Positions 8,532 through 53,885 are shown, numbered from the stretch's first letter. The stretch: DNA of 64,000 nucleotides from an uncultured Gammaproteobacteria bacterium (GCA_963803545.1 CAWDMX010000001.1:753013-817012); one strand, 5' to 3'. Notes: generated by a model from the letters alone, not told the origin. Numbers and translations: made by a program.

Positions 8532-8965
8532 TAAGGTTCTCAATTTGTTGTCAATGTGTATCTAATTGTAAATTAAAATTTAAAAGAAGGTAAATTTAAT
8601 CATTAATTAAACATTTACTAACACCGTATAAGGAAGTTGCGGTGTAAAGAGGTTTAATCGCCAACGTTTTAGACAACGGCAAACGTCGTTATCGGAGAAC
8701 CTTACCAGCAATCCTGTTTTAAAAAACAGTTGTCATGGTCAACCCAACGCCTCGTTTGCACGGTACGCAATGTTTTAAAAACGCAACCCGTAATCTTTTG
8801 TAACTTTTTATTAGGTTTGCTGCGTTCGTGCTTGACGATCGCCAATAGAACTTTGGATGTGATACAAAAAGTACACACTGTCGTTATAGTGACTTATTTA
8901 GTTCATTATGTTACTCTTATGCATTTTTTATCTGCATTTATGATGCGCTTTTCTAAGGTTTGACT

Positions 8966-37502: not shown

Positions 37503-38810
37503 TCATGAAGTAGACGTCATCCGCGCCTTAAAAGATTTCATCCCTGTGAAGATTGGATCTGCAATCTTTTCTGGGAAGTGGTTTGGTAACTCTGTTGAGA
37601 CCTCATCAATAGCAGAATCGATACGCTCGATAACTTGCTCAAAAATCTTAACAGCTTTTATTCTCGAGTATTGAACGTATTTTGCTGTTTCAATAAAATG
37701 TCTTTTTTGAATACCGTCAATCTTGTAATGACTATTTTTACCGTATAAAGCCATTGCCATTTTCAATTTTTTAAACGGTAGCTGTTTTTGTTTAATTAGG
37801 GGATAGGCTGAGATCATGTCGTATAGTGGGGTGAGCTTATAACCACCTTGGGGTTGTAGACTTACACTGAAATTCTTGGCATGCGCATCAATAGCACCAA
37901 GGCACCAGTTAACGACCTGAGCCCTGAAAAAATCATCTCGGTCTTTTTGAGGCTGTTGCGAACCATTAAGTAGCTGCATAACTTCTTTAATACCCGGCCC
38001 ACCATCAGACTGATATTTTAAATTGGGTGAGTATCCCAATGACTGGCATAGATCTTCCTGTGGCAATCTAAGAATATCCTGATGATCGCGACTCCATTTT
38101 CTATCAAATCTTTCAACAACTAATACTTTTACATCTTCGAATTGTAAGATTTTAGATTTTGCAACATTTAAACCAAATTTGCTGGCCAGTCGTAAACAGA
38201 GATGTTCATTTTCACAACTTTCACTTAAATCAATCCCTTGATGAGATAAATATCCAATAGGTAGTTTGAATATGTGGGTTGTTGGTGTAGGTCCAAATGG
38301 TTTATGCCATTCATTTTGATAATATAGGAAAGCGGTTTTTTCCTGAGCACCGGCTATCGAGATTCTAAACTCATCATCCTCTTTATTCATTCCCAGTGGT
38401 GAGGTTTGGTAAGAGCGTAAAGTACGAGCTATCTCGGCTTCACTAACAATTTTGCTTTTAATTTTCAGATGTTGATTTTGAGGAATATCTTCAACAATTT
38501 GTATCGCACCAACACAATCACTGCCAATTAGAGCCAATAGATCAAACGGTTGTGATGAACTTGCTTGAAAACGAGCTTGAATTCTGGCTCTTATCTGCGG
38601 ATTATCAGGAAGTAAGTTATCAAAAAAATTATAAACAACTTTTCCTGAGAACTTTTGCGTTACTAATGGTAGCGATAAAGAAACTGGGCGTGAATACGGC
38701 TTGGAAATCCAGTCAGCGACGTAGCAAAAACTCAAACCACCTGCATTATCTTGGGTAAGCTCCCCAACGAGCTCATTATTCATCAATATGTATAATTTAC
38801 GCATTACCAT
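37503..38810 (-). CDS. hipA: HipA-family serine/threonine kinase toxin
   Basis: Motifs are LYILMNNELVGELTQD...FFDNLLPDN..IRARI...DLLALIGSDCVGAI...ISIAGAQEKTA. At 435 aa it is full length. Confidence 0.85.
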   Translation of the reverse strand: MVMRKLYILMNNELVGELTQDNAGGLSFCYVADWISKPYSRPVSLSLPLVTQKFSGKVVYNFFDNLLPDNPQIRARIQARFQASSSQPFDLLALIGSDCVGAIQIVEDIPQNQHLKIKSKIVSEAEIARTLRSYQTSPLGMNKEDDEFRISIAGAQEKTAFLYYQNEWHKPFGPTPTTHIFKLPIGYLSHQGIDLSESCENEHLCLRLASKFGLNVAKSKILQFEDVKVLVVERFDRKWSRDHQDILRLPQEDLCQSLGYSPNLKYQSDGGPGIKEVMQLLNGSQQPQKDRDDFFRAQVVNWCLGAIDAHAKNFSVSLQPQGGYKLTPLYDMISAYPLIKQKQLPFKKLKMAMALYGKNSHYKIDGIQKRHFIETAKYVQYSRIKAVKIFEQVIERIDSAIDEVSTELPNHFPEKIADPIFTGMKSFKARMTSTS

Positions 38811-40094: not shown

Positions 40095-41027
40095 TAGTTA
40101 ATTGAATTTTAAATGACCGATAAATTGTATATAATTGTCGTTTTTAACTTCGGTCATATTTATGGGACATTCAACAGATTTAAGAGGATCAGTTTTACGC
40201 TTCATTGATTCAGGAAACTCAATTAAGGCAGCATGTAAATTATTTAGTGTCAGTCGTTCATCAATCCAACGCTGGAGAAGCAGGTTAAGTAAATCAGGGA
40301 CAATAGAGCCCAAGCTACGAATAAAATCTCCCTATAAAGTGGATGCATCAGCTTTAAAGGCTTACATTTCCGCCCACCCTGATGCTTACCTCAATGAAAT
40401 TGCTGCGCACTTCAATGTCACTGCTTCAGGGATATCAAAAGCATTGCGTCGTCTGAAAATCACACGCAAAAAAAAACTTCGCTCTATGCTGAAAGAGATG
40501 AATCCAGACGACAAGAATTTGTAGAAATTATTTCACAATACCCATCAGAAAAACTGGTATACATTGATGAGTCTGGAATTGATAAGTTTATGTCTCGAGA
40601 ATAGGGGTGGGCCTTAAAAGGACAAAAAGTGATTGGTGAAATCTCTGGTAGACGCTATGCCAGGGAAAGCTTTGTGGCTGGGTTGAATGGGGGTCGGCTG
40701 ATTGCGCCGTTATGTTACACAGGTACCTGTGACACAATATTGTTTAATTTTTGGTTGGCTAATTTTTTATTACCCACATTAAACCAAGGTCACATTCTGG
40801 TGATGGACAACGCAACATTTCATAAATCAGAAGAAACGCGTCTACTTATCAATAATGCAGGATGTGAGCTACTTTTTTTGCCACCGTACTCGCCAGACCT
40901 TAATCCCATTGAAAAATGTTGGGCGAATCTCAAGAGTAAAATCAAAAAAGTTATTGCTCAATTTTCATCCCTGTCAGAGGCTGTTGATTATGCGTTTCAA
41001 ATAGATCAATTAAAATTCAAGTGACTG
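40095..41027 (+). mobile_element. Tc1/IS630-like element, copy A (inactivated)
   Basis: IRs are TAGTTAATTGAATTTT and the complement of AAAATTCAAGTGACTG, flanked by TA on both sides. Two frames (40135-40524 and 40629-41024) join across an A9 run at 40468-40476. There is an in-frame TAG at 40602-40604. Confidence 0.8.
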
Positions 41028-41768: not shown

Positions 41769-42152
41769 AATTATTATTCAGAAATAGTTGATTACCCTAC
41801 AACCACGAGAGGCTACACACAACAGTGGGAGATATATCCCCTGTGGCCTATGAAAAAGAATAATAAAAGTGCCCAAATTTGGTTGACCAGAACAATATTG
41901 ATTGTTACCGACAGTTGCTCTCAAAATAAATGCGTCCTAGGAATGCAAAACAAAGGTGGGGCAGCTAAAACCTAGTAATGACGGGGCGTCCCACTTATCC
42001 CCTATGTCCCGCCCATTTTTTATAAGCGTGCAACACGCATTAAATAAAATTAAATAAACATAATCTACGATGATTTCCGCAACGCAATATACTATAATTT
42101 ATGCAACATGATATACTATGATTTCAACAATAGTATTAATAGAGAAAAGATA

Positions 42153-43667
42153 ATGAAACCATCAGAAAAACTGGCTCAATCCTTAGAAATTTTACGAGAA
42201 ATACAGCAAAAAGGTAAATATACCATTCAATCAAAAAATATCAGCAGAACACATCGCGAACGATTGGTAGAAAATGGCTTTTTGGAAGAAGCTATCAAAG
42301 GTTGGTACATACCTGTCAAACCAGATGAGCAAAAAGGAGATAGTACCCCATGGTATACTACCTTTTGGAATTTTTGTGCCACCTATTTGAATGAACGATT
42401 TGATGATAATTGGTGTCTTTCTCCTGAACAATCCCTACTTATCCATGCAGAAAACTGGACTGTCCCTCAACAGTTGATAGTGCGAAGTCCAAGTGGAACA
42501 AACCGTAATATGGAATTGCCACATAACACTTCAATGTTTCAAGTACGCTATAAAATGCCAACACCAGAAGATATCGAGGTAAAACAAGATTTAAGATTAT
42601 ATGCACTGGCACCGGCTCTGATCTATTGCTCTCCCAAATTCTTCTCACAATATCCAACTGAGGCCAGGGCTATTTTATCTATGTTTAATAACGCCTCTGA
42701 CATACTTCATTATCTATTGGATGAAGGGCGTTCATGGATAGCTGGAAGACTAAGTGGTGCGTTTAGGAATATTGGAAAAACACAAATAGCAGGTGATATT
42801 AAAATGACCATGGAAAGTGCTGGGTATCAAGTACGCGAGGAAGACCCTTTCTGTACAGTTGCACCCATAGATTTCTCAAAGGGTAATAAACCACCTTACC
42901 GTAGTCGTTTAGAAGTGATGTGGCATGAAATGCGACAGCCTATCATCGATTATTTCCCAAAACCAAAGCACAAGATTACTAATACTGAAAAATATATAGA
43001 ATCCGTTGAAGAAGGCTACACCAATGATGCTTATCATTCTTTGTCGATTGAAGGCTATCAGGTCAGCGCGGAACTCATTGAAAAAGTACGCTCCGGCCAA
43101 TGGGGTCCTGATGCATTTGAAGATGATAGGAGTCAAGGAAATGCACTAGCTGCAAGAGGATATTGGCAAGCTTTCCAAGCCGTTGAAAAAAGTCTGGTTA
43201 AAGTACTGGAAGGAGAAAATCCGGGAAATATCATACAAAAAGATCATGGCAGCTGGTATCGAGAACTTTTTCAGCCCAGTGTTGTAGCCGGCCTATTAAA
43301 ACCAACCGATCTTGCTGGATATAGAAGAAACCCCGTATACATTCGACAATCAAAACATATTCCGGCCAGAGCTCAAATTGTCAGTGATTTAATGGAAGAA
43401 TTTTTTCAGTTAGTAAGTCAAGAGAATGATCCTGCTGTTCGAATAGTACTTGGTCATTTCTTTTTTGTATATATCCACCCATACCCTGATGGAAATGGTC
43501 GAATTGGGCGCTTTCTAATGAATGTGATGATGGCTGCTGGTCATTATCCTTGGACTATTATTCCAGTTGATAGACGAAATGAATATATGGAAGCTTTAGA
43601 GCAAGCCAGTGTTCAACAGAATATTATTCCATTCTGTAATTTTGTGGCTAGTTGCGTGGATGGTTGA
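42153..43667 (+). CDS. Fic-domain protein (class II, internal inhibitory motif)
   Basis: The Fic motif HPYPDGNGRIGR lies at 43476-43511. An upstream SLSIEG fits the (S/T)xxxE(G/N) inhibitory helix motif. The start is taken at MKPSEKL. Confidence 0.85.
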   Translation: MKPSEKLAQSLEILREIQQKGKYTIQSKNISRTHRERLVENGFLEEAIKGWYIPVKPDEQKGDSTPWYTTFWNFCATYLNERFDDNWCLSPEQSLLIHAENWTVPQQLIVRSPSGTNRNMELPHNTSMFQVRYKMPTPEDIEVKQDLRLYALAPALIYCSPKFFSQYPTEARAILSMFNNASDILHYLLDEGRSWIAGRLSGAFRNIGKTQIAGDIKMTMESAGYQVREEDPFCTVAPIDFSKGNKPPYRSRLEVMWHEMRQPIIDYFPKPKHKITNTEKYIESVEEGYTNDAYHSLSIEGYQVSAELIEKVRSGQWGPDAFEDDRSQGNALAARGYWQAFQAVEKSLVKVLEGENPGNIIQKDHGSWYRELFQPSVVAGLLKPTDLAGYRRNPVYIRQSKHIPARAQIVSDLMEEFFQLVSQENDPAVRIVLGHFFFVYIHPYPDGNGRIGRFLMNVMMAAGHYPWTIIPVDRRNEYMEALEQASVQQNIIPFCNFVASCVDG

Positions 43668-44272: not shown

Positions 44273-44384
44273 TGTAAATCAGCATGCAAAAATGACCCCT
44301 TTAGAGGGGAAATCAGCGTCGAAAATTGACCCCCTAAATAATTGTTAAACTAACCGTTGGGATCACTCAACGGAGATGAGGGGG

Positions 44385-45896
44385 ATGTTAATTGTGGAAA
44401 CGATCGCAAAAATACGCACACGTTATCATGTTCAGAAACAAGGCATTAAGCAAATAAGCCGAGAGCTGAATTTATCGAGGAATACAGTAAGAAAGGTACT
44501 CCGTGAAGGACAAACTGCACATGTCTACAAACCAAGGCAAGTGGTCGCCCCAAGGCTTGAGGATTATAAGGAGCAATTGCAGTCCTGGCTTGAATTGGAC
44601 AATCAATTACCAAAGAAACAGAGATGCAGTGCCATGCGCTTGCACCAGCGTTTGCGGGAGTTGGGATATTCAGGCGCTTATGACAGCGTACAGCGCTATG
44701 TAAAGCAATGGATGCTGGATGATGGCAAGGTGGGCAAGGCATTTATTCCACTTTACTTTTCGCCAGGGGAAGCTTATCAGTTTGACTGGAGCGAAGAAGT
44801 TGTAGAGCTTGGTGGCGTTGCTCAGAAAATAAAGGTCGCACAGTTTCGTTTGTGTTACAGCCGCATGCTATTTGTGGCAGCGTTTCCGCGAGAAACACAG
44901 GAAATGCTGTTTGCAGCGCACGCACAGGCTTTTTCATTTTTTGGTGGAATCCCGCGTCGCGGAATTTATGACAACATGAAAACGGCAGTTGACGTGGTTT
45001 TTACTGGCAAGGAAAGAATGTTCAACAACCGATTTATCCAGATGTTAAGCCATTATCTGGTAGAACCCACAGCCTGTAGTCCCGCTGCTGGCTGGGAAAA
45101 GGGGCAAGTTGAAAATCAGGTTGGCAATGTTCGCGATTGGGTTTTTGTGCCCCGGCTAAAATTTAAGGACTTCAACGAACTGAACCGGCACCTGACGGAG
45201 CGCTGCCTGGAGATTTCCAAAACGCGTGCACATCCTGAAGCGAAAGACACTCGTATTTTTGAGATTTTTGAGCAGGAAGGACAGGTGCTTCGACAGATGG
45301 ATGCGCCATTTGACGGCTATATGGAGAAGAGCTGCCGGGTTAGCAGCACCTGTCTTGTTAACTTTGACCGAAACCGCTATAGCGTTGAATGTGCCTATGC
45401 ATACCAACCGGTCAGCGTGCGGGCTTATTCTGACAAAATTATAGTGAATTCAAAAGGCCGTGTCATCGCCGAACATACACGTCATTTTGGTCGGGATAAA
45501 ACCATTTATAATCCCTTGCATTACCTGCCACTGCTTGAGCAAAAGCCTGGAGCTATTCGCAATGGTGCGCCATTCCACGAATGGGTATTGCCCGATGGTC
45601 TTAAGAAAGTCAGGGAAATCCTGATGAAGGACAAAGATGGCGACAAAGCCGTTGTGTCAATACTTCTTGCGATTTCCACCCACGGTCTTGAAGCCGTTGA
45701 TGCTGCCTGCAAAACAGCCATTTCAGAGGCGCTCATAGGAGCTGATTATATTTTGAATCATTTAAACCGCCAGAAAGACAGGCCAACACCTTCTGAAATA
45801 ACGACGCCAGACTGGTTAAAACTGGCCAAAGAACCGATGCCCGATATGGTTCGTTACAATCAGTTGCTCAGAGGGGTTCGCCATGCCATACACTGA
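44385..45896 (+). CDS. istA: IS21 family transposase IstA
   Basis: Motifs are [39 protein letters not shown] and YQFDWSEE...[10 protein letters not shown]. Confidence 0.9.
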
Positions 45897-46611
45897 ACTG
45901 TTGTTAATGTTACGCAACCTGAAGCTTTATGGGATGGAAGAAGCGTTTACAGAAGCAAGCGAGCAACCAGGATTCAGTCAGCTGACCAAAGAGTCTCTTT
46001 TGTCAAATCTGGTTCGTGCTGAAATTGCCGACAGGCAGGCTCGCTCCATTAACTATCAAATGGGTACTGCCAAATTCCCTGTATACCGTGATTTGGACCG
46101 TTTTGATTTTGCATCGTCTGAAGTCAATGAAGAACAAATAAGAACGCTGCATGAAGGCAGTTTTATTCCTGCTAATCGTAATGTTATTTTTGTGGGCGGT
46201 ACTGGCAGTGGAAAAACTCATCTGGCGATTGCCATTGCCAGTCAGGCCATTAAAAACAGGTACAAGGCGAGATTTTTCAACGTAGTTGACCTTGTTAACA
46301 GACTCGAGGCCGAAAAGTTGGCCGGCAATGCAGGAAAACTCGCCGAGCGTTTGAAAATGGTTGATGTGGTTGTCCTTGATGAGCTGGGTTACCTGCCCTT
46401 CTCTCAGGCTGGAGGCGCATTGTTATTCCATCTTATCAGCAAACTGTATGAGAAAGTTTCACTCATTATTACCACCAACCTCAGTTTCAGTGAATGGGCA
46501 CAGGTCTTTGTTGACAAAAAAATGACAACCGCCATGCTCGACAGAGTTACACATCATTGCGACATCATTGAAACCGGAAACGAAAGTTACCGCTTTAAAA
46601 CAAGAAATTAA
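45883..46611 (+). CDS. istB: IS21 helper ATPase IstB
   Basis: The Walker A is [11 protein letters not shown] and the Walker B is VVVLDELGY. The gene overlaps the istA stop. Confidence 0.9.
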
Positions 46612-46932
46612 TTGCTTCTATATTTTACATTGTGACTATCACAGGGGGGGGGCAATTTTCGACGCTGACAGGGGGTCAATTTTGGATGCTGATTGACAAT
46701 TATTACTCTCCTCGAATTTAAATATTTAGTAAATACATGCAATTAAGAAATAGTGTCTTTTTTTTTAGCAAAAATGAGATTGACTTTTCTTTTGTCCTTT
46801 AGTAGCTTGCCCTCTGTAGAGTCTTTCTAAGGCTATCTACTAAAAAGAGGTTTATTGCAGGCTATTTTTAGGCCTCGATAAATTTTGACCACCTAGCTAG
46901 CTTTGTTAGTTGGGTTTTACTGTGGATTAATA

Positions 46933-47854
46933 TAGTGAATTAAAATTTAAACGATCCCCTGAAAAGCATGATCAATGGCCTGAGCTAATGTATCAAAATT
47001 AGCAATTTCATTCTTAATTTTCTTTTTTAAATTTGCCCAGCATTTTTCAATAGGATTTAAATCTGGTGAATAAGGGGGACGAAAGATCAAATCACAACCT
47101 GCGCCATTGATAATAGCAGCCGTTTCTGGGGATTTATGAAAAGCAGCATTATCCATTATAATGGTCTTACCACTTCCAATTTCAGGTAAGAGGAAATTAC
47201 TGAGCCAGAAGTTGAATAAAACACCATCCATAGTGCCTTGATAGCAAATTGGGGCAACCAGAGTTTTATGGATTAACCCCGCTACAAAACTTTCTCTAGC
47301 GAAGCGTTTACCAGACCTCTCACCAATAACTGTTTGCCCTCTCTCACTCCATGCGTGCTCCCTGGATACAAAGCTATCTATGCCTGACTCATCAACGTAT
47401 ACGATACTTTCAGGGTTCAAATGCTCTATGATTTCAATATAATGTTCGCGTTTATTAGGGCACCGCTCCTTGTAGAGCGAAGTCTTTTTTTTCGAGTTAT
47501 TTTTAACCGCTTCAATGCTGCATGAATAGCAGGGGCGGTAACATTAAAGTGAGAGGCTATCTCATTTAAAAACGAATCAGGATGCTCTTTAATAAAGGCT
47601 TTTAACTTATCTGAATCTATTTTGTATGGGTTGTGTGGACGACCAGCACCTACCAGTTGTCCTGTTTGATGTCTCAATCTCTTCCATTGCTTAATTGTCG
47701 TTGTACCAACTGAAAATAATGTACTCGTAGATTCGATCGTAGCTCCTGAATCTATATGGAAAAGTACTTTTTCCCTAAAATCTAATGAATAAGTCATAGT
47801 CTAAAAGCACTAATTATAACAAACATTTAAGACTTTTTAAATTTTAATTAACTA
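46933..47854 (-). mobile_element. Tc1/IS630-like element, copy B (apparently functional)
   Basis: IRs are TAGTGAATTAAAATTT (46933-46948) and the complement of AAATTTTAATTAACTA (47839-47854). A TA duplication is present on both sides. Confidence 0.85.
46947..47797 (-). CDS. IS630-like transposase encoded in two frames joined at an A AAA AAG site
   Basis: ORF1 is 47426-47797 (HTH; LKRLKITRKK). ORF2 is 46947-47420 (DDE; DNAAFHKS...PPYSPDLNPIEKCW). The ORF2 frame is open back through the A8 run at 47485-47492, so a -1 shift gives one product. Confidence 0.75.
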
Positions 47855-47869
47855 TAAAGAAGTTATGTT

Positions 47870-47968
47870 ATGAAAACAACTACAAAAACTAAAACCCTAA
47901 CTGTTTCTAAAATTTCTGCTGCAATTAAAATTGCCTTAAAAGCTTCTTTAATTACAGCTGTTCCTTAG
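47870..47968 (+). CDS. candidate precursor peptide (32 aa)
   Basis: The peptide is MKTTTKTKTLTVSKISAAIKIALKASLITAVP. A purine-rich AAAGAAG lies 7 nt upstream. It is the first ORF of the co-oriented cluster and is followed by a long hairpin. There is no homology evidence. Confidence 0.4.
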   Translation: MKTTTKTKTLTVSKISAAIKIALKASLITAVP

Positions 47969-47977
47969 TCTTTTTTT

Positions 47978-48029
47978 CAGGCGTAATATCACTCAAATTT
48001 ATTTTTTATTTGAGTAATATTATTGCCTG
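47978..48029 (+). promoter_or_regulatory. long imperfect hairpin between the small ORF and the E1-like gene
   Basis: The left arm CAGGCGTAATATCACTCAAAT (47978-47998) pairs with ATTTGAGTAATATTATTGCCTG (48008-48029), giving about 19 pairs with two small bulges. No U-tract follows. Confidence 0.5.
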
Positions 48030-48054
48030 AATTAATCGTAATAATGGTTTTTGT

Positions 48055-49120: not shown

Positions 49121-50158
49121 TTGTCTTTTTCTTCTATTAAATTAACTGAACTTGTCAAACAAACAGGGAGTACACCTGTTAATTTATTTAATTTACTCTC
49201 TCTAGTGGAGCATAAAACGAATGTTCCACTGAGTACTGATTGGCAGATTTTTAAAAAAAATGACGACACTATTCTCTTGGAAAAAATATTTAAAGAGTAT
49301 GGCCCTAATAGTAACTTACAGAATGTATTTGACTATTTATTAGAGTGTGAATCTACATACTCAAACCTTCTATCCAGTTATTTAACACAATATCGAGATC
49401 AGAAGAAAAGTAAGAACGATCTTTTTCACAAGTATGGGTATAATTTAAAAAATTTAAAACAAGAGCCATGTCTTCATAGAGAGCAAGAGCAAGAACTTAT
49501 AAAAATTTGTCTTAAAAGAAATTATAAAAATAATATAATGCTCATCGGTGAATCTGGCGTAGGAAAAACCTTTCTTATTGCATCGATTGCTCATATTCTA
49601 AACTTAGACATTTACTACATAGACATTAGCAGCATATTATCTGGCTCTAAATATCGCGGCGAATTTGAAAAGAAATTTCACGATATTCTTAATGAGGCTT
49701 TAACTCACAGGAAAATTTTATTTTTTGATGAAGCTCATACGATACTAAATACCGGAAATTCTGACGGAGGAATATCTGGTGCTGATATATTAAAGCCTTA
49801 TCTTATGCTTGCAGACTTTCAAATGATAGGAGCAACGACAATCGATGAAGCAGCTATATTTGTTAACGATAAAGCTTTTGAAAGACGTTTTAATTTTATT
49901 CACCTTGAAGAGCTAACTGTAGAAAATACAAAAGAGATCATAAAAAGTAAGCATCAACAAATCAGTGATTGGGATCCTCTCCTTATAGATAAAATATTTG
50001 TATATTTAGGTAACACATTCAAGAGCAGAAACTACCCAGATAAAGCACTTGATTTTTTTGATTTTTATTTTTCTGGTGAAAAATTATCTTCGTTTAAAAT
50101 TGATGAAATGGAAAAAGTATTCAGCCTTTTTAATCGCATGAATAATATGTCAGTATAA
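49121..50158 (+). CDS. Clp-type AAA+ protein with N-domain-like region and D1 module only
   Basis: Motifs are NIMLIGESGVGKTF (Walker A at 49547-49570), ILFFDEAHTIL, GATTIDE and FERRFNFIHLEE, matching ClpA/B D1. The TTG start is 1 nt after the upstream stop. There is no D2 module. Confidence 0.8.
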   Translation: MSFSSIKLTELVKQTGSTPVNLFNLLSLVEHKTNVPLSTDWQIFKKNDDTILLEKIFKEYGPNSNLQNVFDYLLECESTYSNLLSSYLTQYRDQKKSKNDLFHKYGYNLKNLKQEPCLHREQEQELIKICLKRNYKNNIMLIGESGVGKTFLIASIAHILNLDIYYIDISSILSGSKYRGEFEKKFHDILNEALTHRKILFFDEAHTILNTGNSDGGISGADILKPYLMLADFQMIGATTIDEAAIFVNDKAFERRFNFIHLEELTVENTKEIIKSKHQQISDWDPLLIDKIFVYLGNTFKSRNYPDKALDFFDFYFSGEKLSSFKIDEMEKVFSLFNRMNNMSV

Positions 50159-50170
50159 GTTGGTTTATAA

Positions 50171-51394
50171 ATGCAATTATTCTACAGACTATTAATTTAT
50201 ACTATATTATTTTCAAGCATCAGAATGCTCGTGGGAGGCTACTCTTCTTTATATTTAACCAATCACGGGTTATCTATTGCGGATATCTCCTTTTTAAAAG
50301 CGTTTCAAGGAATAGTAATTGTACTTATTCAAGTTCCGGTAGGGGTGATCATTGATAGATGCAATAATAGGTTTCCTTTCATACTGATTTCAATTTTTCT
50401 TGCAGCCATTTGGATGTTTTTAACTGCCATAGGTAATACAACGTCTATTTTCTTTGCAGCAGAATTTTTTAATGGTTTGTCTTTGGCAATTTTTAATGCA
50501 GTGATGTTGCCTATCTTAGTTGAAACTTATTCTTATGAGACAGGAAAGGATGATTATAACTACACATTAGGCAAGTTTTTCAAATATCAAAACTTATTAA
50601 TGGTAGTGTCTGTACTTTTAGGCAGTGTTTTTGTAACGGTGGAGTCCAGATACGTCTGGTTTGTTGCCTCTTCTATTTTAACAATAATGGGGGTATTTTC
50701 TCTTTTAGCTAATGATTTAAAGAAATTTAATATCACTTCATCAAAAAAACCACTACTAAATAAAGCGAGGTTACACTTCAAGAATTTATTTAATGTATTG
50801 AAAGTTGAAAACGCCATTATTTTATTTATTGCTAATATCTCGCTGGTTACTGTGTTTCAAATTTTAGCTCAATTTTGGCAGGTAATCATTTATGATTATT
50901 TAGGTGAACATACTTCTAATGCAATAGTATATGGACTTATATTTGCCGTTATTTTAGTATTTCAAGCACTAGGATCATTCTTTGCTGAAAAGAAAAACTC
51001 ACTAAAAATAAGCTTGTTTTTTATGGCTTTTTTCGTTGCTACTACATGCTATCTAATGGGATATAACGGAAATGAAATCTATAAAATAATCCCTATTATC
51101 CTGTTTCTTTTTTGTTTTATTTTATTTAAATATCCTTCAATTATTATAAGCGCATTACTGCATAAAAATATCAGCAATGACATTAGGGCAACTTTTGATT
51201 CACTAATTAGTACAATTTCAATGTTGGTATCAATCGGCACATTTTATATGATTGGAATTTTACTCAATAACTTTGGAAATAAAGTAATTATTTTATCTTT
51301 GACATTTTTAATGATGACAAGTTTTTTTAGCACATTTCTATACGTGATTAAAACAAGATATAGCCTAAGAACTAGTTTAGTAACGAGTTCTTAG
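50171..51394 (+). CDS. MFS transporter (about 12 TM)
   Basis: The protein is hydrophobic throughout, with a central loop KKFNITSSKKPLLNKARLHFKN separating two six-helix halves. Confidence 0.8.
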   Translation: MQLFYRLLIYTILFSSIRMLVGGYSSLYLTNHGLSIADISFLKAFQGIVIVLIQVPVGVIIDRCNNRFPFILISIFLAAIWMFLTAIGNTTSIFFAAEFFNGLSLAIFNAVMLPILVETYSYETGKDDYNYTLGKFFKYQNLLMVVSVLLGSVFVTVESRYVWFVASSILTIMGVFSLLANDLKKFNITSSKKPLLNKARLHFKNLFNVLKVENAIILFIANISLVTVFQILAQFWQVIIYDYLGEHTSNAIVYGLIFAVILVFQALGSFFAEKKNSLKISLFFMAFFVATTCYLMGYNGNEIYKIIPIILFLFCFILFKYPSIIISALLHKNISNDIRATFDSLISTISMLVSIGTFYMIGILLNNFGNKVIILSLTFLMMTSFFSTFLYVIKTRYSLRTSLVTSS

Positions 51395-52443
51395 ATAACC
51401 ATTCCTTCTAATAAACTAACTGTCTCTTCCATTGGATTAATCTCGGCTAAACAGCTATAAGGCATTATCCACATTGGATCAGAGTGTCCAAAGTCCATAT
51501 TAACTACTACAGAAACTTGGAGTAATTGATATTCTTCAAATACGTCTAAAATGGCTTTTCCATAGTCTTTAAATTGCGGGACTAAGATATGCTGACCACC
51601 TGGCTTACTAAATAAAATGCCCCCTATCTTAGCCAGTATTCCTTGAGCCGCTAAGTTTCGTAAGAAACGTTTTAAAAATAATGGGGCTACACCTTCTTCT
51701 GAAGTTTCTAAGAAAAGAATACAGCCAGCCCAAACATCTAATGAAGGCCAAATTTCGGTGGCATTGATAAACTGTAATACTTCAACACAGCCGCCTAATA
51801 AACGTCCTTGAACTATTTTGTCAGTACATCCAATAAATTCCCATTTCATTTCGGGCTCAAGCTTTCTTTGGATCACTTGATTGGAAGGTTTTTGCCAATC
51901 TAAATATTCCTTAGTCCATCCCTCACTTGCTTTGGGAATGGGACCTATTTTATCCGTTGAAAAAAAACTCTGTTTTATCGCACTTACTGTGTACTCATGC
52001 ATTGCTGCATTTTCTGCGAAACCTGTCATTACCGAAGTACCATAAAAGCTTGCTATGCCCGCTTTTAAGCACATAAAATGCAAAACAGTACTGTCTGAAT
52101 AACCTAAAACTATTTTTGGGTTTTTACGAATGATTTCAAAGTCAATGTAAGGTAATAACCTTATGGCATCCTCTCCGCCAATCGTTGAGAAAATTCCTTT
52201 GATAGATGGGTCTAAAAACGCTTGCATTAAATCTTCTGCTCTAGCCTTGGGATTTCGGTATACCCAATCAGCATCTTTTAATGCATGGGGCATTTCAACC
52301 ACTTCCAATTCAAAAACAGATTCGATTCGTTGTTTACCTGCTTCATAACGATAAGGAAAAGCACCAGGGCCGCCCCATGAAGCACTGATCACTGCAATTT
52401 TATCTCCAGGATTCAATTTTTGAGGGAGAATTAATTGCTTCAT
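51391..52443 (-). CDS. S66 peptidase (LD-carboxypeptidase LdcA / MccF family)
   Basis: Motifs are LNPGDKIAVISASWG, IVLGYSDSTVLH (nucleophile Ser motif) and DFGHSDPMWIMP (His motif). The stop overlaps the MFS stop by 4 nt. Confidence 0.85.
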   Translation of the reverse strand: MKQLILPQKLNPGDKIAVISASWGGPGAFPYRYEAGKQRIESVFELEVVEMPHALKDADWVYRNPKARAEDLMQAFLDPSIKGIFSTIGGEDAIRLLPYIDFEIIRKNPKIVLGYSDSTVLHFMCLKAGIASFYGTSVMTGFAENAAMHEYTVSAIKQSFFSTDKIGPIPKASEGWTKEYLDWQKPSNQVIQRKLEPEMKWEFIGCTDKIVQGRLLGGCVEVLQFINATEIWPSLDVWAGCILFLETSEEGVAPLFLKRFLRNLAAQGILAKIGGILFSKPGGQHILVPQFKDYGKAILDVFEEYQLLQVSVVVNMDFGHSDPMWIMPYSCLAEINPMEETVSLLEGMVI

Positions 52444-52687: not shown

Positions 52688-53885
52688 GGTAATCGTCCCT
52701 AAAAATAATTGATGCCAAAAGTAGAATTTTCTCGTACCCTTTACGCAGGAGATTCTGCATGAAAAAATCAAAATTTAGTGACAGTCAAATTATGTCGATC
52801 ATCAAGCAAAGTGAAGCATGCGTACCTGTTCCAGAACTTTGTCGTGAACATGGCATGAGTTCAGCAACGTTTTATAAATGGCGTGCAAAATATGGTGGCC
52901 TGGACTTGCCGATGATGACCCGACTAAAAGAGCTCGAGTCTGAAAATGCCCGTTTGAAGAAGATGTACGCTGAAGAGCGCCTAAAATCTGAGATTCTTCG
53001 CGAGGTGCTTGAAAAAAAGTAGTTAAGCCATCCAGTCGAAAGCAGCTTGCACAGAAAGCCGTGCAGGAAAAATTTATCTCCGTACGGATGGCCTGTTGTT
53101 TATTTAGCATTAGTGAAACTTGCTATCGTTACCAATTGAAGCTGAATGATGAAAATGCTCATATTGCAGACTGGTTGTTGCGTTTGACTAAAAATAATCG
53201 CAATTGGGGTTTTGGCCTTTGTTTTTTATATTTGCGTAACGTTAAAGGTTACAAATGGAACCATAAGCGTGTTTATCGTATTTATAGAGAGCTCGAGCTG
53301 AATTTAAGAATCAAACCCAAAAAGCGGTTAATTAGGGAAAAGCCAGAGGCGCTAACGGTTCCTCAAGCAATAAACGAATGCTGGTCAATGGATTTTATGC
53401 ATGATCAGTTACAAAACGGGCGTAGTTATCGTTTATTTAACGTGATTGATGACTTCAATCGAGAAGGCCTTACCATTGAAGCTGACTTCTCTTTGCCTGC
53501 TGAGCGTGTGATTAGGGCGCTTGATCAGGTTATTGAGTGGCGTGGTAAGCCTTTTCAGATACGTTGTGATAATGGACCTGAATATATCAGTCACTTGCTT
53601 ACACAATGGGCTGAAAAACACAAAATAACGCTATTGTTTATTCAGCCAGGCAACCCACAACAAAATGCCTATGTTGAGCGTTATAACAGAACCGTACGAT
53701 ATGATTGGTTAAACCAGTATTTATTTAGTACGATCGAGGAAGTTCAGAATATGGCCACAAAATGGTTGTGGTCTTATAACAACGAACGGCCTAACATGGC
53801 AATTGGAGGTATACCGCCCAGACAAAAACTGAAATTAGTAGCTTAGTTTCTACTTTTAGCGTCAGTTAAAAATGGGGGGATTACC
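52688..53885 (+). mobile_element. IS3-family insertion sequence, intact
   Basis: IRs of about 40 bp are GGTAATCGTCCCTAAAAATAATTGATGCCAAAAGTAGAA versus the complement of TTCTACTTTTAGCGTCAGTTAAAAATGGGGGGATTACC. A GATC direct repeat lies at 52684-52687 and 53886-53889. Confidence 0.85.
52759..53846 (+). CDS. IS3 transposase OrfA/OrfAB
   Basis: OrfA is 52759-53022 (HTH plus leucine zipper). The slippery A AAA AAG lies at 53013-53019. The -1 frame continues [23 protein letters not shown] into OrfB (53061-53846; DFMHD...DNGPEY...[10 protein letters not shown]). Confidence 0.9.

Follow-up and report, generated by a model that had tools for sequence, protein, structure and literature searches.

The 64,000-nt stretch of DNA analyzed here (hereafter the window; GCA_963803545.1 CAWDMX010000001.1:753013-817012, from an uncultured Gammaproteobacteria bacterium) contains, at 47870-47968 on the plus strand, a small open reading frame (ORF), most likely the gene for the precursor peptide in a Legionella antibiotic cluster of microcin-C-like type. 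Its translation is MKTTTKTKTLTVSKISAAIKIALKASLITAVP, 32 aa, its stop codon is TAG, and the co-oriented gene of a ThiF/E1-like enzyme begins with an ATG 86 nt past that stop (gap 47969-48054), which is the distance given in an earlier note on this sequence. The operon runs from the precursor gene through the MccB-like enzyme and a Clp-D1-like AAA+ ATPase to an exporter of the major facilitator superfamily (MFS), with the gene of an MccF-like peptidase convergent to it; a hairpin lies between the first two genes, and an insertion sequence (IS) ends just upstream of the first. The enzyme carries a peptide clamp of the kind known as the recognition element (RRE) of peptides that are made by ribosomes and modified after translation (RiPPs). 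The features of the locus are as follows; loci of the comparison are denoted by L numbers.

46780-46808, plus strand: candidate native promoter (−35 TTGACT at 46780-46785, 17-nt spacer, −10 TAGCTT at 46803-46808)
46891-46915, plus strand: hairpin in the leader (native 5′ untranslated region) that is followed by a U-rich tail, a terminator-like scanner hit that is kept in relatives
46931-46932, no strand: left copy of the TA target-site duplication (empty site in L010: GGATTAA-TA-AAGGAG)
46933-47854, minus strand: IS630-family insertion sequence, 922 bp (Pfam HTH_Tnp_IS630 1.2e-23, DDE_3 5.1e-29)
47855-47856, no strand: right copy of the TA target-site duplication
47857-47862, plus strand: Shine-Dalgarno remnant AAGAAG (AAGGAG or TGGAG in relatives)
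47870-47968, plus strand: putative precursor-peptide gene (the 'A' gene), 32 aa, Pro-terminal, recognized by orthologs and a coding test
47976-48031, plus strand: RNA hairpin in the gap that separates the A gene from the ThiF gene, with a 22 bp imperfect stem and a 9-nt loop
48055-49119, plus strand: MccB-type ThiF/E1-like adenylyltransferase with an N-terminal peptide-clamp (RRE) domain (Pfam ThiF 6.5e-48)
49121-50158, plus strand: single-module AAA+ ATPase of the Clp/Hsp100 D1 type with a unique N-domain of ~110 aa (PDB matches and motifs)
50171-51394, plus strand: MFS exporter with an MccC-like role (Pfam MFS_1 7.9e-17), at the same position across the family
51391-52443, minus strand: convergent S66 serine peptidase of the MccF branch, probably for self-immunity (Pfam Peptidase_S66, S66C)

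A homologous small ORF was found in every related cluster with readable sequence upstream of the ThiF gene, and the same arrangement, in which the small ORF stands directly 5′ of an MccB-type ThiF gene, recurs in ~25 related clusters from Legionella to Firmicutes. Its hosts are L. pneumophila, L. jamestowniensis, L. drancourtii and several Legionella metagenome-assembled genomes, and outside Legionella other Pseudomonadota, Fluviispira, Lachnospiraceae and other gut Firmicutes, and Pseudolactococcus, with plasmid-borne copies of the small ORF and ThiF in Priestia and Exiguobacterium. Strong GGAGG-type ribosome-binding sites precede many of the homologous ORFs, and in the relatives GGAG stands 7-8 nt before the ATG. 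Nine Legionella-type orthologs retain all 32 codons with zero indels; among them the variable sites split 15/10/23 over the three codon positions, the pairwise ratio of nonsynonymous to synonymous changes (pN/pS) ranges from 0.07 to 0.49, and the precursor ORF is conserved no less than the first 300 nt of ThiF, the spacer between the two genes less so. The 14 variants of the peptide in databases all share the 32-aa core and the terminal Pro. An exhaustive database search with the single peptide returned only three representative clusters among 1.84 billion proteins, public databases annotate it as 'hypothetical' or 'uncharacterised' only, and in an L010/L009-type metagenomic relative the 32-aa gene had already been called. 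Because orthologs stand upstream of ThiF and the substitution pattern is that of a coding sequence, we count the ORF as a real, conserved gene under purifying selection; together with an enzyme that bears an MccB-type peptide-clamp domain, these observations uphold the 32-aa precursor ORF proposed in the earlier note. No other small plus-strand ORF ending in Asn was found in the interval from the IS to ThiF, where the sole Asn-terminated ORF, of 14 aa with a GTG start, lies on the minus strand and was judged to be due to chance.

The enzyme encoded next to the ORF has, by sequence search and structural modeling, the two-domain architecture of MccB, that is, a ThiF adenylation domain with a peptide clamp/RRE. 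MccB was its best match in a PDB sequence search (3e-29), followed by PaaA (4e-23). An AlphaFold2 (AF2) model built on the family alignment (confidence score, pLDDT, 89) was aligned by Foldseek with MccB at a template-modeling (TM) score of 0.80-0.81 over ~358 columns, which is the full length including the N-terminal clamp/RRE, with PaaA at 0.73, and with ThiF/MoeB at 0.59 over ~265 columns of the catalytic domain only. The equivalents of the ATP/Mg catalytic residues R157, K170 and D214 of MccB are invariant in 17 family members, and its CxxC zinc site is absent in all of the family. The column of MccB Y239 holds Pro or Ser in the MAFFT alignment; Firmicutes members have a Tyr or Phe just after it that can be aligned by a one-residue shift, and the Legionella-type enzymes have no aromatic residue there.

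The peptide itself departs from what is known of microcin C (McC). For known McC precursors a C-terminal Asn is the one strict requirement (PMC8323819), and MccB forms the N-P bond from the side-chain amide of that Asn via a succinimide intermediate (PMC12596934). The window peptide ends in TAVP and contains no Asn, Asp, Glu, Gln or Cys, and all 14 Legionella-type variants likewise end in Pro; it is therefore, with the C-terminal Asn missing, not to be filed as a canonical MccA. The absence of these residues and the terminal position of Pro leave the α-carboxylate of Pro32 as the only carboxyl of the peptide, and six Lys and ten Ser/Thr are its possible nucleophiles. The internal Glu-Glu-Asn motif of PaaP was not found in the window peptide, which has neither Glu nor Asn. 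A conserved segment, MKTxxKTKTLTI, forms the N-terminus, motifs of the peptide are common to different phyla, and the precursors of clusters that contain the AAA+ gene are 22-35 aa long. The second half of the peptide had been proposed to form an amphipathic helix; this was rejected, since the helical moment is 0.15 (p=0.61), whereas the beta-type moment reaches 0.40 (p=0.02), the periodicity of a strand.

Across the family, the terminal residue of the precursor is constant inside each clade, and the residues that precede it vary. The clades are as follows.

Terminal Pro: all Legionella types (AVP, AIP, VLP, VQP, TTP), Fluviispira, Priestia and L098
Terminal Ala: L007, L096 and L106
Terminal Gly: L103
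Terminal Arg: Pseudolactococcus, Exiguobacterium and L108
Terminal Asn: L016, L095, L102 and L111/L112

The active site of the enzyme is the same across clades with these different precursor termini, and neither the Tyr239 column of MccB nor any other active-site column correlated with an Asn terminus. In the Arg-terminal clade a methyltransferase gene directly follows the MFS gene (L017, 8977-9855; L136, 7556-8431), which suggests an extra tailoring step specific to that clade.

The rest of the operon would suit a RiPP cluster with export and self-immunity. The AAA+ protein, 345 aa with one AAA module and no D2 module with a ClpP-docking loop, matched ClpC1, ClpA and ClpB D1 in the PDB at 1e-34 to 1e-30, and its Walker A (GESGVGKT), Walker B (ILFFDE), pore loop (KYRG) and arginine-finger (ERRF) motifs are invariant across 15 family members. 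Its N-domain was also considered as a reduced Clp_N, which is unsupported: a profile of the N-terminal 110 aa searched against PDB sequences gave no Clp match, the best hit being an unrelated one at E=0.06. A single-sequence AF2 model of this protein (pLDDT 43) was too poor for use. The S66 peptidase matched a B. anthracis S66 protein at 1e-100, MccF at 1e-25 to 1e-30 and LdcA at only 1e-4, and is kept with the cluster in all Legionella-type loci. The ThiF-AAA-MFS core as such was found in ~45 loci across phyla, accompanied by a variable fourth gene for an S66 peptidase, a HIT hydrolase or a GNAT acetyltransferase. S66/MccF, HIT and GNAT proteins are the three known types of self-immunity against processed microcin C (PMC8323819, PMC7157772). 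A paralog of an aminoacyl-tRNA synthetase as a resistance gene was not found near the cluster. The GC content of the cluster is 32.1%, against 41.7% for the window, and IS21, IS630 and IS3 elements flank it. One departure from the usual layout was observed on a plasmid of Priestia aryabhattai (L135, 2020-3975), where the AAA gene encodes 651 aa, about twice the usual length, and the AAA and MFS genes are divergent from the precursor-ThiF pair, so that the same gene set has a different architecture.

The hairpin between the precursor and ThiF genes was placed at 47978-48029 with ~20 bp in the earlier note and is refined here to 47976-48031 with 22 bp. The folding-energy check proposed there gave −22.8 kcal/mol for the 56-nt element (z=−8.3), and 0/200 dinucleotide shuffles folded as well. 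It begins 7 nt past the TAG stop. The bases directly after the stem are TTAATCGTAATA, so that the reported lack of a U-tract is borne out; with the tail UUAAUCGUAAUA the element has no U-tract of an intrinsic terminator, and the terminator scanner made no call. An Rfam scan of the hairpin returned no match. In 22 of 24 loci the spacer from the precursor gene to ThiF holds a stem-loop of at least 10 bp (−14 to −29 kcal/mol), whose sequence is unrelated between lineages. In Legionella-type loci with a hairpin the stem starts 5-9 nt after the stop, comprises 22-27 bp and is not followed by a U-tract; in Firmicutes members a U-tract was seen by eye after the stem, which makes these canonical terminators. 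Pairs changed on both sides with pairing kept numbered 2/22 and 9/25 in the two Legionella subgroups that could be aligned, counts that rest on small samples. RNAalifold found no consensus for all nine Legionella-type spacers together because of a one-column register shift between the two subgroups, which was resolved by folding them separately.

With structure kept and sequence changing at a fixed position, we regard the hairpin, on this comparative evidence, as a conserved cis-acting RNA element. In E. coli, the ribosome bound at mccA activates an intrinsic terminator that lies between mccA and mccB, and this yields an abundant, stable mccA transcript that is required for production (PMC4231749). 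The earlier note had drawn the analogy with this terminator; the E. coli precedent is as it claimed, and the stem-loops in 22/24 loci, their unrelated sequences and the compensatory changes support the comparison. By analogy, position and conservation argue for an mccA-mccB-like logic, in which the hairpin would most likely raise the short precursor transcript far above the enzyme message by partial termination and/or protection of the 3′-end. The Legionella-type hairpins may act by partial termination, as a barrier to 3′-exonucleases or as a ribosome-coupled switch, and the element could be coupled to the terminating ribosome, as at mccA-mccB. The earlier note had also considered that homologous clusters might lack any ORF or hairpin at this position, or that the hairpin might be the end of a repeated element: ORF and hairpin are both present in the homologous clusters, and the hairpin arm has a single occurrence within the 64-kb window.

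The IS upstream belongs to the IS630/Tc1-mariner family, as is evident from its DDE_3 and HTH_Tnp_IS630 domains, its short terminal inverted repeats and its TA target duplication; it is distinguished from that family by its small size (922 bp) and a transposase frame split at a T8 run. The terminal repeats, 95% complementary, lie at 46931-46951 and 47836-47856, and the transposase is encoded in two minus-strand ORFs, 47797-47426 and 47420-46947, split at the T8 run at 47485-47492, which reflects either a programmed frameshift or an inactivating mutation. Duplication of TA on insertion is typical of the IS630 family. The boundaries at 46933-47854 were refined from the empty site in L010, which reads GGATTAA-TA-AAGGAGTTATGTTATG, while the filled site of the window reads GGATTAA-TA-[IS 46933-47854]-TA-AAGAAGTTATGTTATG. 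Because the empty site has one TA and the window two, the IS landed on a TA and duplicated it. The IS630-like element with its TA duplication, as reported earlier, is thus confirmed by the transposase domains, the terminal repeats and the empty site. The ORF had also been said to start 15 nt after the right inverted repeat and TA: the 15 nt hold when counted from the end of the IS to the ATG, and the L010 empty site places the duplicated TA inside those 15 nt rather than before them.

The closest relatives by ThiF (96% identity), the metagenomic loci L009 and L010, have no IS, and it is missing at this site in L010, L011 and L014. Left of the IS, 235 nt (~46698-46932) align collinearly with the upstream region of the latter three loci, in which the candidate promoter is kept as TTGACA/TAGTTT and TTGACT/TAATTT. 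The leader hairpin, which may serve as an attenuator ahead of the precursor gene, is conserved there as well with a change from G.U to A-U, and the copy of the window has one stem mismatch. By comparison with these loci we place the insertion as recent and strain-specific, on the TA directly 5′ of the Shine-Dalgarno sequence, parting the operon from its conserved promoter and leader. Displacement of the native promoter, suggested in the earlier note, is therefore supported by the uninterrupted relative at 96% identity and by the match of the sequence left of the IS to the promoter and leader of that relative. The alternative offered there, a promoter reading out of the IS, found no support: the scanner found no plus-strand promoter-like site between the end of the IS and the ORF, and the promoter-like site at the IS end (47841 to 47813) faces the transposase gene, away from the ORF.

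All four cluster genes of the window are full length, with 92-96% identity to the IS-free relatives. Since the operon is cut off from its promoter and leader, the cluster would probably be silenced or strongly down-regulated, though all genes are intact. Three changes fit a relaxed constraint or early decay after the insertion: the Shine-Dalgarno sequence AAGAAG (GAAG, at 47860) in place of the AAGGAG (GGAG) of relatives, the mismatch in the leader stem, and Ile19 (codon 19, ~47926), which is Thr in the 14 other Legionella-type variants. They may mark such a decay and are too few for proof. A second, diverged IS630-like copy (66-70% identity) lies at ~40375-40999.

Taken together, we consider it probable that the ORF is the precursor gene of a horizontally acquired, hairpin-regulated operon for a microcin-C-related RiPP, which the IS has separated from its promoter. 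In the mechanism that we propose, the N-terminal MKTxxKTKTLTI would dock as an extended strand on the N-terminal clamp of the enzyme, the enzyme would adenylate the Pro32 α-carboxylate, and the activated C-terminus would become an exported product by a route without an Asn side chain; the MFS pump would carry the product out and the S66 peptidase would protect the producer. For the product, a nucleotide-linked peptide appears most likely because immunity-type genes accompany the family, and we give it slightly less than an even chance. The co-occurrence of the AAA+ motor with long precursors may be relevant to its role. A further step, in which the clade-specific terminal residue (Pro/Ala/Gly/Arg/Asn) is the warhead of a Trojan horse, produced independently of Asn with the Clp-D1-type AAA+ protein as a necessary component, is doubtful. 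Here the product would mimic an aminoacyl-nucleotide in a non-hydrolysable form and target the corresponding aminoacyl-tRNA synthetase, and the AAA+ translocase might, for example, thread or release the long precursor.

Several points weigh against this assignment. Translation and modification of the peptide are read from sequence comparison, and, lacking a C-terminal Asn, the proposed nucleotide-linked product needs unfamiliar chemistry. The candidate promoter was missed by the consensus scanner and is recognized by its conservation. Read-through into the operon may also come from within the IS, where the sole inward plus-strand promoter-like site (47416-47443) is followed by a terminator-like hairpin (47464-47479). 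As for the RNA element, two loci, L094 and L108, have no hairpin at all, and for the Legionella-type hairpins, none of which has a U-tract, intrinsic termination is no more than a possibility.

A possible alternative, if an unlikely one, is that the peptide is a genuine precursor that is adenylated only transiently, after which an internal nucleophile (Lys/Ser/Thr/N-terminus) or an external amine would give a macrocycle or a C-terminal amide, as in the EnfB, IndF and GrcB systems described recently, and the resulting molecule could function in signaling or act on membranes. Pro, Ala, Gly, Arg and Asn termini handled by one active site argue for a chemistry independent of the Asn side chain, cyclisation or amidation of C-termini by ThiF-like enzymes has documented examples (PMC11256085, PMC12150305, PMC12596934), and the six Lys and ten Ser/Thr offer candidate nucleophiles. 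However, none of these is invariant, the best-conserved Lys being replaced by Arg, Asn or Thr in some members; MccB is the closest enzyme by both sequence and fold; and the MccF-like S66, HIT and GNAT proteins are known defences against processed aminoacyl-nucleotides.

It is quite improbable that the ORF acts solely as a regulatory leader peptide, a Thr/Lys-rich upstream ORF that would control the downstream hairpin by attenuation, with the true substrate elsewhere. It is rich in Thr and Lys in the manner of amino-acid operon leaders, a distance of 5-9 nt separates the stop from the stem in Legionella-type loci with a hairpin, so that a terminating ribosome would overlap the stem base, and ribosome-controlled termination is known at mccA (PMC4231749). 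Yet sequence, length and C-terminal residue are conserved well beyond the Thr/Lys codons, with motifs common across phyla, the enzyme has a dedicated peptide clamp, and no other conserved small ORF is available; moreover, one ORF can fill both roles, as in E. coli, where the ORF under regulation also provides the substrate.

Even smaller is the probability that the peptide serves the AAA+ motor as a small tag or adaptor, much as Pup does for Mpa, and that its E1-activated C-terminus would be ligated to a target and not exported. In favor of such a role, the E1-like enzyme always occurs with a disordered peptide rich in Lys and with an invariant AAA+ protein of the unfoldase type whose pore loop is intact, but an MFS exporter belongs to the conserved core, McC-type immunity genes stand alongside, and no E2, ligase or protease partner accompanies them. 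The C-terminal residue, moreover, differs by clade without a Gly-Gly or Gln/Glu type handle, and the enzyme is of the MccB/PaaA type, not of the ubiquitin-like-protein-activating type. It is scarcely credible that the ORF and the hairpin arose by chance, or belong to a mobile or repeated element beside the IS: AT-rich sequence such as this readily gives rise to short ORFs and hairpins, and there are two IS elements immediately upstream, but IS-free relatives and other phyla have both features at this position too, the ORF has a coding signature, and the hairpin, at z=−8.3, is unique in the window with compensatory changes that support its stem.

Compared with the E. coli mcc operon, the microcin-C-related operon has the same tiny ORF directly before an MccB-type two-domain ThiF gene, with a structured spacer between them, and, as in mcc-like clusters, an MFS exporter and an MccF-branch S66 peptidase, with HIT or GNAT proteins in sister clusters and a few Asn-terminal members in the family. 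E. coli MccA is 7 aa long, whereas the window precursor has 32 aa, is Pro-terminal and is free of Asn, Asp, Glu and Gln. An invariant Clp-D1-type AAA+ gene stands here between the B and C genes, and, unlike E. coli mcc, the cluster has no CxxC zinc site in its enzyme, no U-tract at the Legionella hairpin and no mccD/mccE tailoring genes. Some mcc-like clusters have been described with a 'ClpA homolog', for which the role of an immunity hydrolase was a guess (PMC8323819, Travin, Severinov and Dubiley 2021, Fig. 6 item 8; repeated in PMC12250964). These clusters are probably the Asn-terminal members of the ThiF-AAA-MFS family, for example L016, L102 and L112. In those surveys it was an accessory gene, whereas here the AAA+ gene is core and encodes a motif-intact translocase module. 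Because the surveys required a C-terminal Asn, the Pro/Ala/Gly/Arg clades, including all Legionella clusters, were not covered by them.

ThiF-like enzymes also serve other RiPP systems, namely PaaP/PaaA (pantocin A), EnfB (macrocyclic imide/amidation), IndF (indolylamide) and GrcB (thiolactone) (PMC11256085, PMC12150305, PMC12596934). With the PaaA, EnfB, IndF and GrcB systems the present cluster shares an RRE-bearing ThiF-like enzyme, a short precursor upstream and adenylation of a carboxylate as the first step. The Legionella peptide differs from the substrates of these systems in having no EEN motif, no Trp and no Cys/Glu pair, its enzyme is nearer to MccB than to PaaA (TM 0.80 vs 0.73), and a Clp-type AAA+ partner is reported for none of them. 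An uncharacterised Arg-terminal 'VEGR type' ThiF-RiPP cluster has been described in Bacilli (PMC11256085), with which the Arg-terminal clade (Pseudolactococcus, Exiguobacterium, L108) may overlap. Neither the Legionella cluster nor any precursor ending in Pro turned up in our literature search.

The surroundings of the cluster are rich in mobile DNA. In the window it lies in an island with a HipA toxin kinase, a Fic-domain protein, IS21 (istA/istB) and an IS3-family element (island features at 37503-38810, minus strand, and at 42108-43667, 44376-46611 and 52759-53846, plus strand), which adjoins the core genes for an aminotransferase, uvrB, pepP and a ubiH-like protein. In Legionella drancourtii LLAP12 (L014, 1941-6756) the ThiF gene is split by an insertion of ~3.7 kb with a UPF0236 transposase-like ORF and a reverse transcriptase (RVT_1); mobile DNA has thus disrupted this cluster on an independent occasion. 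In Exiguobacterium pE73 (L136, 2639-3774) the precursor ORF has an IS3 transposase 325 nt upstream, and DDE_Tnp_1 and rve fragments stand beside the cluster copy of L. pneumophila (L001, 3037-4248 and 10544-11031). The cluster seems to travel with, or often be targeted by, insertion sequences. Elsewhere in the window, a single ORF of 3460 aa extends over 8960-19342 on the plus strand.

A C-terminal Asn has been the defining mark of microcin-C-type antibiotics because its side chain is what MccB uses for the N-P bond, and here is a coherent, widespread family in which MccB-type enzymes go with precursors ending in Pro, Ala, Gly, Arg or Asn and which also has the whole complement of McC-type genes for export and immunity, together with an invariant AAA+ motor of Clp-like type. 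This raises the questions of how an MccB-type enzyme acts on a non-Asn C-terminus and why a RiPP pathway would need an unfoldase. In Legionella, including L. pneumophila, the locus represents an unannotated bacteriocin-like locus, of which the IS-interrupted and intact forms provide a natural on/off pair for studying its expression and ecological role. If the terminal residue does act as a warhead, microcin C would change from a curiosity with a single target, aspartyl-tRNA synthetase (AspRS), into a programmable family.

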